Shown here: positions 12,166 through 44,880 of the stretch, piece by piece
How positions within the stretch are numbered: the stretch's first letter is position 1
Layout: the number at the start of each line of letters is the position of its first letter
Source: a virus
Length of the DNA: 64,000 bases
Virus record (IMG/VR): IMGVR_UViG_3300020048_000042
Span: 58,313 to 122,312 of that record
Strand: one strand, 5' to 3'
Notes under the pieces: generated by a model
What the model was told of the DNA's origin: nothing
What the model saw: only the letters and a program-made list of their open reading frames with translations
Database searches by the model: none
Translations under genes and position numbers: made by a program

Positions 12166-12643
12166 TTGGATAGTACTTACCTAGAATGTTACCATTGTAA
12201 CTGTTGGCTGTTAGTACATCATTCTTAATTTGATGTGCAATCTCACAATAGCCCAGGTATTTTTTAGAGTAACATACTTCCAAGATCCATCTGTCATAAT
12301 AGGATGGATCAGTCATTGCTATTTCCTCAAGCAATTCTTTACATGATCCATGGTATGACAACCAAGTTGATTCTTTTACAACGCGTTTAAACGTTTTTCT
12401 TGTCTTTGTCTCTGTTTTTTCTCTTACAGAAATCTTTGTTTTTCGCTCACTATAGAGACTTTTCTTTCCAATGTAGAATCTTCCAGTCTTTTTGTTTGTG
12501 ATAACGTACACAAATCCAACTGCATCTTCATGATTTGGTAGATCTTGAATACAAGAGACTTCTTTTACTAACCCTGATGGGGTTGTTAATTTCCAATTGT
12601 TCATAAAATTGAGGCTTTCTACAAATTTACAGTTTTTTGTCAA
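12152..12643 (-). CDS. GIY-YIG family endonuclease (free-standing)
   Basis: GFVYVIT-N7-RFYIGKK signature, later YxGS and E...YNGNI. Confidence 0.75.
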   Translation of the reverse strand: MTKNCKFVESLNFMNNWKLTTPSGLVKEVSCIQDLPNHEDAVGFVYVITNKKTGRFYIGKKSLYSERKTKISVREKTETKTRKTFKRVVKESTWLSYHGSCKELLEEIAMTDPSYYDRWILEVCYSKKYLGYCEIAHQIKNDVLTANSYNGNILGKYYPSDME

Positions 12644-13628
12644 TGTATTTATCTATTGCAGCTTGTAATTTTGGATAAAAATCATGCAATGCTACGTCCT
12701 TACCATGAACTTTAATGATATCGCTGATATCTTTTTCTCGTGGAAGGTAGATAAATGGTAGCCCATAAGTTTCTTGATAATACTTCATAGAAGCAATGCC
12801 TGCAGTGTCGCTATCCATACAGACAACAACATGCTTATACTTCTTTTTGTACATTTCAATCTCTTCTTTTCTGAGCTTTGCACTTTCGCTTGATGGTGCA
12901 ACACAGTCTATGGTCAAACCAAGACTTTTTATAGACATGATATCTTTTAAAGATGACGCAATTACTAGTGTTTTATGCTTTTGTAATTGATCAGAACCTT
13001 GTAGATATTTACCAAGTGTCAAGAACTTTTGTGTTTTACTTTTAGGATTATAAACCTTGTAAATAGAACCATCTGAATAGTATCCATAACAAGATTGACT
13101 TTCATAATCATAACTCTTTATTACCTGACCTGTATCTAAGTCAACTTGCATTAACGTATAAGATGCTAATGGTAATACGTTATATGACTGAAGAAGACTG
13201 CTTCCTATATTGTATTGTAACCAAAACTTAGCGTCACCATTTGTCCATGGTCTGACAACTTCGTTTTGTACAATCCACTTTAAACTTACAGATTGTACTG
13301 TAACCTTTTGATACTCTCCATCTTTGCAGAAAGTATAATAGTCATTTACTATTTTAACACAAGCATCTTTAAAATTTAGTTTAAAAAGTGCTTGTACAAG
13401 TGCAACACCTCCTCCAAATCTTCCTGATGAGTGACATTTGAAAACATATTTATTTTCATACTTGTCAACATAGAGAAACATGGATGGTGTTTTGTCATTC
13501 TCATTGAATATACTATTGATTCTAACAAGTTGACCTGTAAGAGTTTCTGGTAGATTCAAGTAGTATTTAAAAAGCCATGTGTCTGGCACAGCTTCTATTC
13601 CTTTTACGTATTGTCTACTTGAAAACAT
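12627..13628 (-). CDS. dnaG: DNA primase (degenerate Zn-finger + TOPRIM)
   Basis: SIFNENDKTPSM...FKCHSSG N-terminal domain; SSLKD and CMDSDTAG (DxD) TOPRIM; KDISD. Confidence 0.8.
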   Translation of the reverse strand: MFSSRQYVKGIEAVPDTWLFKYYLNLPETLTGQLVRINSIFNENDKTPSMFLYVDKYENKYVFKCHSSGRFGGGVALVQALFKLNFKDACVKIVNDYYTFCKDGEYQKVTVQSVSLKWIVQNEVVRPWTNGDAKFWLQYNIGSSLLQSYNVLPLASYTLMQVDLDTGQVIKSYDYESQSCYGYYSDGSIYKVYNPKSKTQKFLTLGKYLQGSDQLQKHKTLVIASSLKDIMSIKSLGLTIDCVAPSSESAKLRKEEIEMYKKKYKHVVVCMDSDTAGIASMKYYQETYGLPFIYLPREKDISDIIKVHGKDVALHDFYPKLQAAIDKYIDKKL

Positions 13629-32181: not shown

Positions 32182-32742
32182 TCATAATCCTTTACGAATG
32201 TTCCTGTACTTTTTGCCATTTTGTAACTCATCAATACTCAAAGGTTGATAGCCAATTAAATGTGCATCAACATTATAGTACTTGTCAAGAGTTGGTTTAG
32301 GTTCACTGCCTTCATCCAGGTACTTATTATTCACAACAACTTCCTCAAGTCTATTTACATGGTGAATGTGAGCATGGATATTTCCACGATAAAACTGTAC
32401 CTCATTTGGGTGTATAGGTACATGTGTAATTATAAAACCTTTATAATCTACAGCACCTGCAACACCATCAACGTACATCATTAACTGTTTAACGTTCTGA
32501 TGCTTGTCATGATTACCTAGTACTACAATCTTTCTTCCATTAAGTAGATCTAATTTGTAGTAATCATTTGGCTTTTCCATTGTGACATCTCCAACAATGT
32601 AAGTTGTGTCTCGCTTACTGACAACCTTGTTCCACTCTGCAATAAGATGAGCGTCATGCTCTTCAGCATTATCCCATTTTCTATACTTTCCAATATTGGT
32701 ATGTCCAAAGTGTAGACACCCAATGAATCTTACAATACTCAT
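32182..32742 (-). CDS. calcineurin-like phosphoesterase (small phage type)
   Basis: CLHFGH, VGDV, LGNHD, THVP, NIHAHIH, NVD. Confidence 0.85.
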   Translation of the reverse strand: MSIVRFIGCLHFGHTNIGKYRKWDNAEEHDAHLIAEWNKVVSKRDTTYIVGDVTMEKPNDYYKLDLLNGRKIVVLGNHDKHQNVKQLMMYVDGVAGAVDYKGFIITHVPIHPNEVQFYRGNIHAHIHHVNRLEEVVVNNKYLDEGSEPKPTLDKYYNVDAHLIGYQPLSIDELQNGKKYRNIRKGL

Positions 32743-32764
32743 TGTATCTATTTTAAAAAATTAG

Positions 32765-32874
32765 TAGTCATGACAGGATTCAAACCTGTGACCTGAACCT
32801 GATGTATTGCATGCCATGGTAGGCTATCCTTTACATTTTCAGAGGTTCCGCTCTATCAGCTGAGCTACATGACT
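32765..32874 (-). tRNA. tRNA-Phe(GAA)-like gene with 35-nt insert at position 37/38
   Basis: Acceptor AGTCATG/CATGACT, D stem GCTC/GAGC, anticodon stem GAACCT/AGGTTC, loop CT-GAA-A|insert|C, variable AGGTC, T stem ACAGG-TTTGAAT-CCTGT; ends A-CTA rather than A-CCA. Confidence 0.7.
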
Positions 32875-32875
32875 T

Positions 32876-33031
32876 GAGGTTGAGAACCTCTGTGTTGTGA
32901 AAACATCATCCCCGTTATCACACGACCTTCATATCTCACATGAACAACACATTTGAAGGTTATTTCACTGCAACCTACAAGCGTTCCCTAACATCAGAGA
33001 CCAATCTCACAAGTTTTAAATGGATGTGAGA
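32876..33031 (-). ncRNA. compact structured RNA immediately 5' of the tRNA-like gene
   Basis: Six stems in ~155 nt (GAGGT/ACCTC, TGTGTTG/CAACACA, TTCAT/ATGAA, CGT/ACG, AGGTT/AACCT, TCTCACA/TGTGAGA); no ORF. Confidence 0.4.
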
Positions 33032-33036
33032 CCATA

Positions 33037-33606
33037 TTATCTAATCTTGGCCATCATTGCCTTAAGCTCTGCAGCTGTCTTGACGTTGATGACTGTTAAC
33101 CTGTTGACAGGTTTTGTAAATGACAAAGGTACTGTTGATACCATGTAATGCATGTTATGTTCAATATAAATCTCTTCTGGAGTAAAACCAAATACTGCAT
33201 CTCCATTAGTTCCATATGAACCATCTTCTGCAGGACTAGGTAATATAGCAGAACCTGCTGAATAATCACCATTAGGATCATCTACTAATTGATCAGTATT
33301 AGTAAGCTGAGAATTTACAGAAGAAATCTTATTTACTTGATAGTAACCAATTGGATCTGAAACACCTTCTACAAATACATACATGTAAAAGGAAATTGTT
33401 CTATCATTCTGCAGCTTGAATCTCTTGATGAGATTATCACGCTCTAATGACCATGAAATCTTTGGAGCTGGTTGAATTGCGTTCAAATCTCTCTGATTGA
33501 TTTCTGTTCTTGCTTGCTCATCTAATGCAGATGTGTTGTCTGCTTTAGTACGACCACATGATGTTACTACAAACATCAATAATAAAATTGCTAATAATTG
33601 TTTCAT
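33037..33606 (-). CDS. phage-encoded lipoprotein
   Basis: MKQLLAILLLMFVVTS-C lipobox; SLERDNLIKR, KISSVNSQLT, PAEDGSYG. Confidence 0.75.
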   Translation of the reverse strand: MKQLLAILLLMFVVTSCGRTKADNTSALDEQARTEINQRDLNAIQPAPKISWSLERDNLIKRFKLQNDRTISFYMYVFVEGVSDPIGYYQVNKISSVNSQLTNTDQLVDDPNGDYSAGSAILPSPAEDGSYGTNGDAVFGFTPEEIYIEHNMHYMVSTVPLSFTKPVNRLTVINVKTAAELKAMMAKIR

Positions 33607-35158: not shown

Positions 35159-37021
35159 TTACAACATTACACGCTCTTTTACAAGTTTGTCAATCTTCCG
35201 CGACATGTACCCTACCATTTCACGTGGTAAATCTTTGATGTTTGTCATCTTAATAAAGTGATCAAACATTTGAGAAGAAGGTACAGACTCTTCAATTGCA
35301 ATCTGTATAATTTGGAAACCAAGATTTTGAGCCTTGCTTACCTTAGCACGTGTGTCATTAATTGCAGATTGACCACCATAGTCATATGCAGCAGGTTGAC
35401 CATCAGACAAAACAAACAACAAACCTACGTCTTCTGTCTGTTTTCTGATACGCTTAGCAGTTGCAAGAATCGCGTCACCATCACGGTTGTTAGATCTTGC
35501 TGAAACTGTACCTAAAGCATGAGGTTCTGCGTGAAACTTAGGCTCACGATAGATTCTGATTTGAGTAGTACCATATCCACTTTCGTCTGCTGTATGACCA
35601 TATATGTACAATTGCACATCACGCATACCTTTGAAGACTTCGTTGATAAAGATAGCAGCTTCACGTGCTTTCTGAATTTTACTTCCACACATTGAACCAG
35701 ACTCATCAATAAGAACACCTACACAGATCTTATCAGTTTTTACTTGACCATAACGCTCATACACAGTTGGTACTCTTTGAACTGCCTCAGCAATCTTATT
35801 AGTATCCAATCTACCTGAACGCATAGACTTCATAGCAAACTGATAGTCCTTGCTTTTTCGTGCAAACAATTTCTGTAACACTGCAGCTTTGGTTGTGTCA
35901 ATATTCTTCACACAACGTTGATAAGATGCTTTGTCAGAGTTAGCTTTGATAAAATTAACAGTTCCATCGCTTGCAGAACCTTCAGATTCATAGTCTATGT
36001 GCTTTCTAGCCATTGGCTCTTCTGTCATGTCTTCAACAAAATCCTCAAATGCTGCCATTTCAGCTTCATCACCTTCATCTGCATCGTCTTTACCAAAAGA
36101 GTCTTCCATTAAGTCTTTTGCAAAGTCATTGACTTCACTTTTACTCATGCCTGGCGCACCTGAACCAGGTGATTTTGATTCGTCTTCTCCTTCTCCACCA
36201 TCGTCATCATCTTCACCACCTTCGCCACCACCAGGTGGTTCTTCTTCTTCTTCTACATACTTGTAGACAATGTTTGCAAGACTTGTAGCCATTGACATAC
36301 AATCGTCACTTGTACCAGGTATACCACCATGCTTCTTAAGAAGTCTTTCAATCTGCTTAAGTGGTGCAGCGAACTCTTCAAGTTCTTCTTCAGTCACATT
36401 TGCAGGATATCTCAACATTCTTGTCAGAAGGTCTAGAAGTCTTTTTTGTGGCTTTTCATGCTCACCTAAAGGCTCATAGTTTTTATCATACAAATGGTCT
36501 TTGTATTTCTGCACAAATTTCAAGTAACCAGGTAATCTGTTTGAAAGCTTTTTGTCAATACGCTCAGTATTCAAGACACTAAACATGTAGTCTTTCAAAG
36601 AGAAGTGTTTTCTTGAAGTATCTCTGCAGGTGATAGATTTACCATATTCGCTTGTAGTCTGCATTGATGCAAGTGCAGCGTTTTGTATAGCAGCACCATA
36701 AAATGCATCAAGAATATCAGGATCTGGTTCACGATACTTACCTTCCTCATCCTTTAACATATGAACAGGAATCTGCAACTGAGTGTTTTTCTTTGGGTCT
36801 CCTGCCTTGTATTCAAAGGTTTTTGGAACTCCAATCACTCTAAACATAGAGCCAATCATCTTTGCAGATACTTGTAAACTGTCTGTGGACTTTGTAAAGA
36901 AAGAAGAGTAATTACTTCTTCCACTATCCCAGTTAAAGAATCTGTTAGTGTTGTCCTTGTAAGTGTAGGATTCTTCTTGTCTTCTGCCAAACCAATCTTT
37001 GGCGTAGTTATTTTTGCTCAT
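35159..37021 (-). CDS. von Willebrand factor A domain protein (CobT/NorD-like)
   Basis: RSGRLD, MIDAS VLIDESGSM, NRDGDAI, VLSDGQP; acidic Gly/Pro linker. Confidence 0.88.
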   Translation of the reverse strand: MSKNNYAKDWFGRRQEESYTYKDNTNRFFNWDSGRSNYSSFFTKSTDSLQVSAKMIGSMFRVIGVPKTFEYKAGDPKKNTQLQIPVHMLKDEEGKYREPDPDILDAFYGAAIQNAALASMQTTSEYGKSITCRDTSRKHFSLKDYMFSVLNTERIDKKLSNRLPGYLKFVQKYKDHLYDKNYEPLGEHEKPQKRLLDLLTRMLRYPANVTEEELEEFAAPLKQIERLLKKHGGIPGTSDDCMSMATSLANIVYKYVEEEEEPPGGGEGGEDDDDGGEGEDESKSPGSGAPGMSKSEVNDFAKDLMEDSFGKDDADEGDEAEMAAFEDFVEDMTEEPMARKHIDYESEGSASDGTVNFIKANSDKASYQRCVKNIDTTKAAVLQKLFARKSKDYQFAMKSMRSGRLDTNKIAEAVQRVPTVYERYGQVKTDKICVGVLIDESGSMCGSKIQKAREAAIFINEVFKGMRDVQLYIYGHTADESGYGTTQIRIYREPKFHAEPHALGTVSARSNNRDGDAILATAKRIRKQTEDVGLLFVLSDGQPAAYDYGGQSAINDTRAKVSKAQNLGFQIIQIAIEESVPSSQMFDHFIKMTNIKDLPREMVGYMSRKIDKLVKERVML

Positions 37022-37050
37022 AAAATTGAGTTAATGATTAATACTAATAG

Positions 37051-37082
37051 AAAAGAGAGAGTATCACAGATGACACTCTCTC
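37051..37082 (-). terminator. hairpin/terminator between ATPase and VWA genes
   Basis: GAGAGAGT/ACTCTCTC inverted repeat with A4 on plus strand. Confidence 0.5.
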
Positions 37083-37115
37083 AGTATTCTACATTGCTGA
37101 TCCTACTACAGCATG

Positions 37116-38402
37116 CTAAAACGCAGATACAATAGAAAGTACCTTGCTACGCTCAGACACGCCAATACCATCTTCAAATAGAGGCATAATAGTAGACAAC
37201 AATGCTTTGTCTACATCAAACCCATCAGCAACTAAGCTAGCTGCTTGAAGTGTGTGACGAACTGAAATCGCAGAAGATAATTCCTGCTCTTTGTACTGCT
37301 TACGTATTTCATTGGAAACACGCACAATTGCAGTTGCAGCTTTTTCCTCAACACCTGTACGAAGCATGATGATTTTAATCTCATCTTCTTGTTGAGGATA
37401 GTCAAGCTCAATAGGAAAGAAACGGTCAAGCAATGCTCTATCTATTGCCTGTGTACCAGAGTACTCAGAACCAATATTAGCAGTTGCAAAGAACACAGTG
37501 TTTTCATTCACTTGAACAGTTCTTTCACCTTCATCGCAAGCGATATCAACAGGCAAATAACGTCTTTTGTCCAAACATGGAAATAAAATGTTATTTGCTG
37601 CAAGTGGTGAACGATTAAGCTCATCTAACAACACAATTCCTCCAGACTTGATATGTCCTACAAAAGGAGCATAATCAAACGCTGAATGACCTTCTTTGTT
37701 GATACGGTGTACACCTAACAAAGCAGATTGAGCATCTTGCACAGTACCCATATCCTGAGTGTGCAAATCTTTACCCATTGCTTTTGCTAAGTGAACCAAG
37801 ATTTCTGTTTTACCAGAACCTGTAGGTCCTACCAACAAAGTATTCTCTCCACGCAATACATTACGCACCATCAAGAACCAGATGTCTGGATCAATGTGGA
37901 ATCCACAATCCTCACGTTTTGGTACTGGATAATGCGCAGCAATTGTACGCTTTAAGTTTGTTCCTGAAGGAATCTCTCCTTCTTCAACTGGCTTAGGTGA
38001 TACCTTAGCATCCCAGTCAAATTTGTAGCCAAATGATGCAAACTGATTTGCCATGTCTTTGACATAATCTACATCATAATCTCCACAGTCTAACATATAG
38101 TCAACTGCAAAGTCACATACCTCTTGAATCTTTGCTTCACCCAATGCAGAGATTGGAAACGCAGATTTTTCAAAGAACATTGCGGTAACATGTTCTTTCA
38201 TTACGTGCAAATGGTCGTCTTCAGGGAAGTCATACTCATCTGCTATGAAAATGGTTCCAAGTGGAAACTTTGCAAACTCAGCAATAGGACCTGTAATTTT
38301 CAAGTCTTCTAAACTACGCGTTAGTTTCTTTTCAAATGCTTGACCTTTTAAAGTCTTAATTTGGTAACTTGTACCTTCAATAATTGATTGCAATAGGATC
38401 AT
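37116..38402 (-). CDS. MoxR-class AAA+ ATPase (CbbQ/NirQ/NorQ/CobS-like) with extra N-terminal domain
   Basis: GPTGSGKT, LLDELNR, FATANIG.EYSGT..IDRALLDRF, ISVRH. Confidence 0.9.
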   Translation of the reverse strand: MILLQSIIEGTSYQIKTLKGQAFEKKLTRSLEDLKITGPIAEFAKFPLGTIFIADEYDFPEDDHLHVMKEHVTAMFFEKSAFPISALGEAKIQEVCDFAVDYMLDCGDYDVDYVKDMANQFASFGYKFDWDAKVSPKPVEEGEIPSGTNLKRTIAAHYPVPKREDCGFHIDPDIWFLMVRNVLRGENTLLVGPTGSGKTEILVHLAKAMGKDLHTQDMGTVQDAQSALLGVHRINKEGHSAFDYAPFVGHIKSGGIVLLDELNRSPLAANNILFPCLDKRRYLPVDIACDEGERTVQVNENTVFFATANIGSEYSGTQAIDRALLDRFFPIELDYPQQEDEIKIIMLRTGVEEKAATAIVRVSNEIRKQYKEQELSSAISVRHTLQAASLVADGFDVDKALLSTIMPLFEDGIGVSERSKVLSIVSAF

Positions 38403-44220: not shown

Positions 44221-44880
44221 TCAGTTTTTAGAGATTTATAATTTGATTGAAAAAATTCATTTTGACGACTTGCCTGTGCTAGGAACACAGGACTTTGGGT
44301 TAAATAAGATATGCAATCTTGCAAAAACAAGATTTAAGTAATAGACAAATGTGATACAGTTTCCTACACTGCATTTAGACCGCTGAGTCTTCATTTGAAT
44401 TAAACTGGATTCCACTCCAGTCAGCTAACATTCTCCCAAGTGGAATCTTTGTGGAAGAGAATGGATAATGGCATACCACATATTACTGCTGCGGTCAACA
44501 GGTTCACACTGCCAGATTGCTCTCGTGTATAACACTGCCTAGTTTAAACTAAACTCACATAGCTTTATCAAAACACTATATGTAAAATACCTGATTTTAA
44601 AGTCTGCACTAACTTTGGATTATATCACTGCAAATGATAAATAGCACTGTAAATCTCTTTGCAGGAGAAATACAGAACCCAATAGTAGCCCCACAGGTTT
44701 GTCACTGTTTGCTAACAGTAATGATGGTTAGGTTCTCACCCTAACCTTATCCCCCATTCTGCTATGTTTCAAGACAGACCCAGGGATTGTTCATTATGTA
44801 CTCAGTTGAACTCTGGCCAGTAACTTACTGGATATTTGCCTGGTTAAAGAAAAGGCAACAATACTTCAAAGAAAAAACAG
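44221..44880 (-). ncRNA. ~650-nt hairpin-dense putative large ncRNA / leader
   Basis: No substantial ORF; at least ten stems (e.g. 44273-91, 44315-34, 44405-20, 44429-63, 44540-51, 44704-19, 44726-46, 44817-31), several with GUGAGAA/GUGGAA/GUAGGAA loops on the minus strand. Confidence 0.6.

Follow-up and report, generated by a model that had tools for sequence, protein, structure and literature searches.

A tRNA-Phe-type gene with a lengthened anticodon arm

The DNA analysed here is a stretch of 64,000 nucleotides (nt), 'the window', comprising bases 58313–122312 of IMG/VR virus record IMGVR_UViG_3300020048_000042, which is 122,312 bp long, 97% complete (CheckV) and has a G+C content of 35%. 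On its minus strand, at positions 32765–32874, lies a 110-nt gene with the body of a phenylalanine transfer RNA (tRNA-Phe, anticodon GAA), interrupted in the anticodon loop by a 35-nt insert. The Rfam tRNA model RF00005 matched the gene end to end (51.2 bits, where the gathering score is 29; E = 4.6e-08 over the 64-kb window; model positions 1–71 covered), and this was the sole tRNA match across the 122-kb genome of this large uncultured phage from a lake. ARAGORN in default mode called neither a tRNA nor a transfer-messenger RNA (tmRNA) at 32765–32874; in intron mode it called tRNA-Phe(gaa) with a 35-nt intron directly 3′ of position 37, although for these boundaries (37/38) shifting both ends by one base fits equally well. 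The ARAGORN call is weak evidence when taken alone, since intron mode also called 75/117 members of the constant-ends RNA family described below, with scattered and mostly arbitrary anticodons. It is nonetheless a genuine tRNA-type gene, far beyond chance: a further four viral contigs carry this 110-nt gene as well. Its parts are as follows.

32765–32874, minus strand: whole tRNA-Phe(GAA)-type gene, 110 nt, with the first acceptor base at 32874 and the discriminator A73 at 32765 (RF00005, ARAGORN intron mode, four orthologues)
32868–32874, minus strand: 5′ strand of the acceptor stem, AGUCAUG, pairing with CAUGACU at 32766–32772 (7/7 pairs)
32850–32865, minus strand: D arm, GCUC-AGCUGAUA-GAGC, of class I type, with a 4-bp stem, G18 and A19 (sequence and ARAGORN)
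32843–32848, minus strand: 5′ strand of the anticodon stem, GAACCU, pairing with AGGUUC at 32795–32800 over 6 bp; invariant in the orthologues
32837–32842, minus strand: 5′ part of the anticodon loop, C32 U33 G34 A35 A36 A37, anticodon GAA; invariant in the orthologues
32802–32836, minus strand: 35-nt insert, an imperfect hairpin with an AUGUA/UACAU closing stem, internal loops, a GCC/GGC stem and a 6-nt apical loop
32773–32789, minus strand: T arm, ACAGG-UUUGAAU-CCUGU, with U56; its stem is identical to that of the constant-ends family T arm, ACAGG-UUCGAAU-CCUGU
32875–32899, minus strand: leader motif CACAACACAGAGG with the hairpin GAGGU-UCUCA-ACCUC, which ends 1 nt from the tRNA 5′ end
32755–32764, minus strand: 3′ trailer, CUAA followed by a U run; CCA is not encoded, and CUA stands in its place

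The insert is followed by C38, the 3′ strand of the anticodon stem, a variable loop (AGGUC), the T arm and A73. Both the coordinates and the arms, together with a self-closing insert at 32836–32802 in the 37/38 site, had been given in the original prediction, made from the letters of the window, and agree to the base with RF00005 and with the ARAGORN intron search that it had proposed as a check. The gene departs from a canonical tRNA in having a 6-bp rather than a 5-bp anticodon stem and an interrupted rather than a continuous 7-nt anticodon loop, and both departures are present in the orthologues too. The remaining peculiarities listed in the original prediction, namely a D loop lacking GG (AGCUGAUA), the T loop UUUGAAU and the 3′ CUA, are likewise real, as is the 6-bp stem itself, but those of the D and T loops need a different reading. 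Among the elbow pairs of the tRNA, G15/C48 and G18 are present, and pair 19:56 is A:U. When the window D arm was used for an exact search of viral contigs, 47 loci were found, the tRNAs of which nearly all had GGTTTGA T loops. Across the tRNAs of the fetched loci, GG in the D loop went with C56 in 193 cases and absence of GG with U56 in 21, with only two exceptions. On this covariation, the peculiarities of the D and T loops are not defects but the two sides of a compensated tertiary pair, A19:U56, which argues for a working L-shape. The C-N-A trailer, for its part, is a trait of the constant-ends family.

In isolation the 35-nt insert folded at −8.4 kcal/mol (z = −1.5). It matched no Rfam family, and a permissive cmscan search of 32600–33050 returned only the tRNA and one chance small nucleolar RNA match. 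The expectation that a phage gene with a complete tRNA-Phe-type cloverleaf carries here an insert too short for self-splicing is supported by both length and Rfam: a group I intron was rejected on the grounds that 35 nt is too short and that no Rfam intron model matched. By eye, the hammerhead core CUGANGA is absent from the insert, and nothing convincing was seen in the way of K-turn or loop-E motifs. No other occurrence of the insert core was found in IMG/VR, and the idea of a mobile element was rejected for this reason. A mini-open reading frame of tmRNA-like kind (AAGGA, then AUG, with a stop at the tRNA end) was also considered and dropped, its first AUG being lost in the orthologues. The palindromes and the AGG-AUAG-CCU hairpin pointed out in the original prediction do exist in the insert, and GCATGC is kept in the orthologues; AGG-AUAG-CCU and CCATGG are not the conserved features, CCATGG having been lost through a change in the loop, while it is the GCC/GGC stem that is kept.

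Orthologues and the cassette locus

Orthologues were sought in viral contigs with a gapped pattern spanning the anticodon loop and the closing stem of the insert, and the four contigs recovered (L283, L288, L294 and L295, with L288 and L294 identical in this region) come from phages only distantly related to that of the window. Shared proteins were 25–53% identical and the neighbouring genes differed, whereas the RNA gene was 97% identical column by column. The orthologue acceptor reads AGUCCCA/UGGGAUU, so that three acceptor pairs have changed on both sides (C:G to A:U, C:G to U:A and A:U to G:C). On the proposed structure, all 30 pairs of the arms and insert stems form in every sequence (120/120 pair cells standard); further stem changes keep pairing by way of G:U, and an equally good result was reached by only 4/500 shuffles. 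Within the insert, 30/35 positions were invariant, including the closing stem, both internal loops and the GCC/GGC stem, and all five changes fell in the apical loop (UACCAU versus UGUUAG). The insert is represented by no more than two versions. Its stems never vary, which gives no information for or against their pairing.

Stems that remain paired, compensatory changes in the acceptor and insert changes confined to places outside the stems, all in phages with strongly diverged proteins, indicate from comparison that the gene is selectively maintained and is not a decaying pseudogene. Random decay among orthologues, named beforehand in the original prediction as the outcome that would count against it, is the opposite of what was seen. 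The window gene can be described as a complete tRNA-Phe body, competent for the L-shape, with a conserved 35-nt hairpin extending its anticodon arm. IMG/VR held no copy that has this anticodon arm but lacks the insert, and no relative of the gene was found in cultured phages.

The gene is bordered by two others on the same strand.

32182–32742, minus strand: gene for a 186-amino acid (aa) calcineurin-type metallophosphoesterase, downstream neighbour (phrog_547 at 9e-38; Pfam Metallophos weak)
33037–33606, minus strand: 189-aa open reading frame (ORF) of unknown function, upstream neighbour and other border of the cassette locus

The closest solved relative of the phosphoesterase is aq_1665, itself of unknown function, and a role as an RNA end-healing enzyme was set aside for want of an informative relative. 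What lies between these two borders varies widely. Homologues of the ORF at 33037–33606 occur in contig L282 (80% aa identity), in contig L002 and in Tenacibaculum phage Gundel_1, and each is followed by a different oversized tRNA-like gene. On the other side, relatives of the phosphoesterase carry upstream tRNA-Arg(UCU) with tRNA-Leu(UAA), tRNA-Leu with tRNA-Met, or tRNA-Arg alone (several contigs), and others have nothing, or oversized tRNA-like genes, at this site. The closest relative at the phosphoesterase locus, L002 (87% aa identity), has a 137-nt tRNA-Leu-like gene at 2343–2479 with a D-loop insert of ~23 nt, an unrecognisable anticodon region and an encoded CCA; the 7-mer ATGCAAT common to this D-loop insert and the insert in the window was judged to be chance. 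L282 has a 117-nt element with an AGUCAGG acceptor directly after the ORF homologue, and a riverine relative has 188 other letters in place of 32745–32952. In the cultured phage Gundel_1, the syntenic site after the ORF homologue holds a 110-nt gene annotated as 'tRNA-Tyr(GTA)' (MT732474.1 68787–68896; L297 2980–3089), which has two T-arm motifs (one being ACAGGTTCGAGTCCTGT) and a 6-bp hairpin in the place of the anticodon arm, and which gave only a weak Rfam tRNA-Sec match (28.7 bits). Syntenic swaps at the cassette site were seen in L282, L002, L085 and L098. As judged from synteny, the window gene occupies a swap site for tRNA and tRNA-like cassettes.

Within the same locus, a non-coding block of ~110 nt (32925–33036, minus strand) directly follows the ORF at 33037–33606; it is conserved with L002, contains the hairpin TCTCACA...TGTGAGA, lies under a contig from an RNA run (X20, 32928–33005), and may be a terminator or a small RNA. 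At 33005, contigs from a DNA run and an RNA run both diverge from the window sequence with the same 30 loose letters, which shows that there is a population variant at the edge of the cassette locus. Further afield, at a distance of 12 kb from the tRNA gene, there is a full-length Hatchet self-cleaving ribozyme (44589–44725, minus strand; RF02678, 81.5 bits, E = 2.6e-15), and a CobS/CobT-like pair of genes encoding an AAA+ MoxR-like ATPase (428 aa) and a vWA-domain protein (620 aa) lies ~2.3 kb upstream of the tRNA gene (35159–38402, minus strand).

A family of tRNA-shaped phage RNAs with constant ends

The 3′ end of the window gene resembles that of RNAs with other kinds of middle. Over the T arm and acceptor 3′ strand, the gene differed from the elements in L085 and L098 at 2/25 positions, one of them compensated in the acceptor, so that between the window acceptor and AGUCAGG/CCUGACU the difference is a single compensated pair. 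Against the corresponding family 25-mer (T arm, acceptor 3′ strand and A73; ACAGGTTCGAATCCTGTCCTGACTA), the window matched at 23/25 positions, the other change being U56, and the orthologues at 20/25. A search of IMG/VR viral stretches with this 25-mer, two positions of which were made degenerate, recovered at least 120 stretches (L140–L259) with at least 143 elements, which ranged from 70 to 182 nt among the matches listed; again among the matches listed, up to five elements were present on one contig, each with a different middle (for example in L148, L159 and L172).

Members of this family have near-invariant ends: an AGUCAGG/CCUGACU acceptor, the T arm ACAGG-UUCGAAU-CCUGU, U48, A73 and, as a rule, the trailer C-N-A after A73. 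The D arm is usually of tRNA-Leu type, and the middles, of 20–130 nt, consist of unrelated hairpins, tetraloop stems or pseudoknots, usually without a usable anticodon loop. The elements sit among normal phage tRNAs, match in Rfam only the generic tRNA model (30–50 bits), and in many cases have a leader hairpin, or a TAnnTTTG promoter element of Bacteroidota type, ahead of them. In one subfamily the D arm is of class I, as it is in the window gene. The leader CACAACACAGAGG, with a hairpin ending just 5′ of base 1, is common to the window gene and several members with class I D arms, and leaders of this type precede elements in L185, L188/L274/L278/L279, L275 and L252. Covariation (UGA/UCA versus CGG/CCG) around a conserved loop is seen in the helix that closes the middle of the L188 and L276 types, and the L277 and L280 elements have a 6-bp stem with a 9-nt loop.

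Among 185,579 species genomes, the 25-mer was present in only 14 contigs of metagenome-assembled genomes (five labelled Bacteroidota) and in no isolate; the possibility that the scaffold mimics a host tRNA was rejected because its 3′ half is nearly absent from these genomes. With a 75-nt member as query, the scaffold was not found in 50,697 cultured-phage records, and no paper with the scaffold sequence or a description of the family was found in the literature. Genes for T5orf172/GIY-YIG-like endonucleases and for other metallophosphoesterases were observed near family elements, each at ~8–9/129 loci (examples are L218 2957–3445 and L141 3212–3919), and may relate to cassette exchange. An unrelated phage contig of 53% G+C, L015, carries a perfect 110-nt tRNA frame of another make (12571–12680; 55.9 bits, CCA encoded), whose 44-nt loop lacks U33 and is closed by an anticodon stem of 5 bp.

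The window gene resembles the family in its T-arm stem, acceptor pairs 1–4, A73, C-N-A trailer, leader hairpin and cassette exchange at fixed loci, and in being located among or in place of phage tRNA genes. It differs in its class I D arm, in U56/A19, in one changed acceptor pair and in its canonical Phe anticodon loop. From these sequence features we read the gene as a member or near relative of the Bacteroidota-type phage tRNA-shaped RNAs with constant ends and swappable middles, and, taking likenesses and differences together, as a near relative or hybrid and not a typical member, one that would combine family-type ends, a tRNA-Phe core and a hairpin of its own.

Splicing, function and known systems

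Were the insert removed, the predicted exon–exon junction (...CUGAAA/CAGGUU...) would be ...GGAACCUCUGAAA joined to CAGGUUCAGGUC, or its one-base-shifted equivalent, and, owing to the 6-bp anticodon stem, the resulting RNA would exceed a normal tRNA body by 2 nt. In the minimum free energy (MFE) fold, the 5′ junction falls after the second base of a 3-nt AAA bulge beside a 4-bp helix, which amounts to half a bulge-helix-bulge. Neither a hand check nor the MFE fold revealed a full bulge-helix-bulge, the 3′ junction being inside a helix and positions 32–35 giving only 2/4 pairs with the intron 3′ end; an anticodon–intron pair did not fit either. In the 97%-complete phage genome there was no match for RtcB, EndA (tRNA_int_endo), an Rnl2-type RNA_ligase, an AAA_33-type polynucleotide kinase, a 2H ligase or a TROVE (Ro60) protein; the profile of the T4 Rnl1-type ligase (RNA_lig_T4_1) did not match the phage either, but as it matched no control genome this result is uninformative. 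Both RtcB and a TROVE protein were present in the Bacteroides control genome. On the prevailing view, tRNA genes of bacteria and their viruses are interrupted only by long self-splicing introns, and we know of no protein-based tRNA splicing in bacteria, nor of any bacterial mechanism that excises such an insert.

We lean slightly towards the view, to which we would give a little less than an even chance, that the gene yields an unspliced, processed, tRNA-shaped RNA with the hairpin as its functional or partner-binding part. Such an RNA would be transcribed behind the leader hairpin, trimmed by host RNase P and RNase Z and given its CCA by the host enzyme, and would act as the unspliced 110-nt (plus CCA) molecule and not as a decoding tRNA. 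The tRNA frame would keep the RNA stable, allow its processing and possibly let PheRS recognise it by the exposed GAA, leaving the hairpin as the part that works or binds a partner. In its favour are the intact tRNA frame, the maintenance of the gene in distant phages, the 6-bp anticodon stem, which L277 and L280 have too, the family ties, the exchange of oversized tRNA-like genes and ordinary tRNAs at the syntenic site, and the failure to find any apparatus or signal for splicing. This stands near parity with removal of the insert as an intron when the prior afforded by non-decoding members of the constant-ends family, the strongly tRNA-like anticodon loop and the abnormal stem length are weighed together. 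Both possibilities had been put forward in the original prediction, as a tRNA with an unknown splicing route and as a mimic or decoy. Several observations weigh against an unspliced RNA of this kind. If exactly 35 nt are taken out, what remains is a textbook loop (C32 U33 GAA A37 N38), and the insertion site is the canonical 37/38, which the inserts of the Lak phage tRNAs also occupy. The anticodon probably matters, since family middles normally lack such a loop. Where the family has a hypervariable middle other than an anticodon arm, this place is taken in the window gene by a canonical Phe anticodon loop with its stem, conserved in the orthologues; and as the orthologue acceptor is AGUCCCA, not AGUCAGG, what ties the gene to the family is the T arm together with four acceptor pairs, the leader and the trailer. 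In the insert loop the five changes are contiguous and possibly a single event, so that the signal of selection on the insert is weaker than the simple count suggests. No protein partner in cis was found, in that no protein family was present within ~7 kb at more than 12% of the 129 family loci examined, nor did the orthologue contigs have neighbour genes in common. Lastly, two RNA runs reach parts of a 3-kb stretch of the window, and the contigs of neither lie over the tRNA gene, nor was a joint across the insert observed in them.

The insert may instead be a true small intron, an explanation we hold to be a serious contender at somewhat longer odds, in which protein enzymes of the host or unrecognised ones of the phage would cut at 37/38 and a host ligase such as RtcB would join the halves. 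The product would be a working tRNA-Phe(GAA), the only tRNA of the phage, supplementing or replacing host tRNA-Phe that has been depleted or cleaved. In addition to the canonical placement and the perfect 7-nt loop left on excision, this explanation draws on the retention in all five phages of tRNA identity and tertiary positions, on the half bulge-helix-bulge at the 5′ junction, on the existence of RtcB in Bacteroidota and, as a weak point, on the metallophosphoesterase gene directly downstream. A precedent exists in the Lak megaphages, in whose introns as listed tRNA-Phe GAA is included (PMC6784885). The 3′ junction inside a helix tells against it, as do the lack of EndA, RtcB, ligase and kinase genes in the phage and of an insert-free allele in IMG/VR, and such invariance as the insert shows in its stems and internal loops is not typical of protein-spliced introns. 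The spliced product, moreover, would keep a 6-bp anticodon stem; to our knowledge this is very rare in decoding elongator tRNAs outside tRNA-Sec-like species, and it should misplace the anticodon. We think it rather unlikely, if worth stating, that the insert is removed by a protein-based pathway of Bacteroidota cells or their phages with no need of a bulge-helix-bulge, which would constitute a third, bacterial kind of tRNA splicing. If so, the 110-nt gene would be the most compact known substrate of bacterial protein-based tRNA splicing, and its 6-bp stem could be the sign of a tRNA-Phe that decodes differently, for instance on U-rich slippery sites.

Much less probable is a dead or dying tRNA-Phe broken by a small insertion, persisting as hitch-hiking DNA or for a role at the DNA level as a promoter, terminator or recombination site. 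The gene is single-copy, its transcript was not detected (contigs from the RNA runs did not cover it), the locus turns over rapidly among relatives, and by eye the U56 T loop with the trailer might be taken for promoter elements of Bacteroidota type that serve the downstream gene. Yet the stems are kept in five phages with strongly diverged proteins, with 0/120 cells unpaired, three acceptor pairs have changed on both sides, and the changes in the insert avoid every stem. The least credible explanation is a tRNA mimic like Y RNA (of YrlA type) or tmRNA, acting with a dedicated protein such as Ro60/Rsr or SmpB. The combination of a tRNA-like module with an extra stem, and the TROVE protein of the Bacteroides control genome, would be in keeping with such a mimic, but the gene matched no Rfam YrlA or tmRNA model, ARAGORN called no tmRNA and the phage has no TROVE gene. 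The RNA also ends in an acceptor stem and not in a Ro-binding stem, and the orthologues do not keep the possible mini-ORF start of the insert.

If the unspliced or the spliced reading is true, the gene represents either a natural 'tRNA scaffold' system displaying other RNAs or a bacterial protein-dependent route of tRNA splicing. New here are the very short and simple insert, its conservation across distant phages with compensatory change in the frame, and the 6-bp anticodon stem, as well as a concrete link, at a shared swap locus, between an interrupted tRNA of canonical appearance and the constant-ends family.

Among known systems, the small stable tRNA-like RNAs of phages T4 (rnaC/rnaD) and T5 (RNA1/RNA2) have ends processed with tRNAs, a non-decoding middle and unknown function, and engineered 'tRNA scaffolds' carry cargo RNA in the anticodon arm. 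The likeness to the window gene would lie in tRNA-like ends around a non-decoding middle; these RNAs have no sequence relation to the window gene and are without a canonical anticodon loop. From YrlA and the Y RNAs that act with Ro60, the window gene and its phage are set apart by the lack of an Rfam YrlA match and of a TROVE gene. Group I introns, which interrupt the anticodon loops of bacterial tRNAs (tRNA-Leu UAA, fMet, Ile and Arg), measure about 200 nt or more and contain a P1–P9 catalytic core (PMC3984707); they share with the window gene an insertion in the anticodon loop of a bacterial-type tRNA, and differ from its 35-nt insert, which matches no Rfam intron. The protein-spliced introns of archaea and eukaryotes (EndA/TSEN with RtcB or Trl1) are alike in their 37/38 position, their shortness and a hairpin extending the anticodon stem, whereas the window gene lacks a bulge-helix-bulge and an anticodon–intron pair, its phage lacks EndA and its hosts are bacterial.

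The closest comparison is with the Lak megaphages of Prevotella (Bacteroidota), for which 'enigmatic' introns have been listed after position 37 of tRNA-Tyr, Phe(GAA), Thr and Gly (Devoto et al. 2019, PMC6784885, Supplementary Table 6). The introns belong to no Rfam family, are strongly conserved in sequence, are left unexplained in mechanism and are absent individually from some genomes; those listed measure 79–114 nt, and the Tyr and Phe introns hold a nested tRNA-like minihelix with a GGTTCGA T-loop motif (PMC6784885). The window insert is likewise conserved, classless and placed directly after position 37 of a phage tRNA, tRNA-Phe GAA being among the Lak cases listed. It differs from the Lak introns, as there described, in being a plain 35-nt hairpin on a 6-bp anticodon stem, with no nested minihelix and with no insert-free allele found. 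The Lak megaphages gave in 2019 what appears to be the first hint of tRNA interruption outside long self-splicing introns (PMC6784885), and we know of no mechanism proposed since. Beside them the window gene is a very small conserved case, with 110 nt and a 35-nt hairpin maintained in five phages, and provides a convenient substrate for asking whether, and by what, such inserts are excised.

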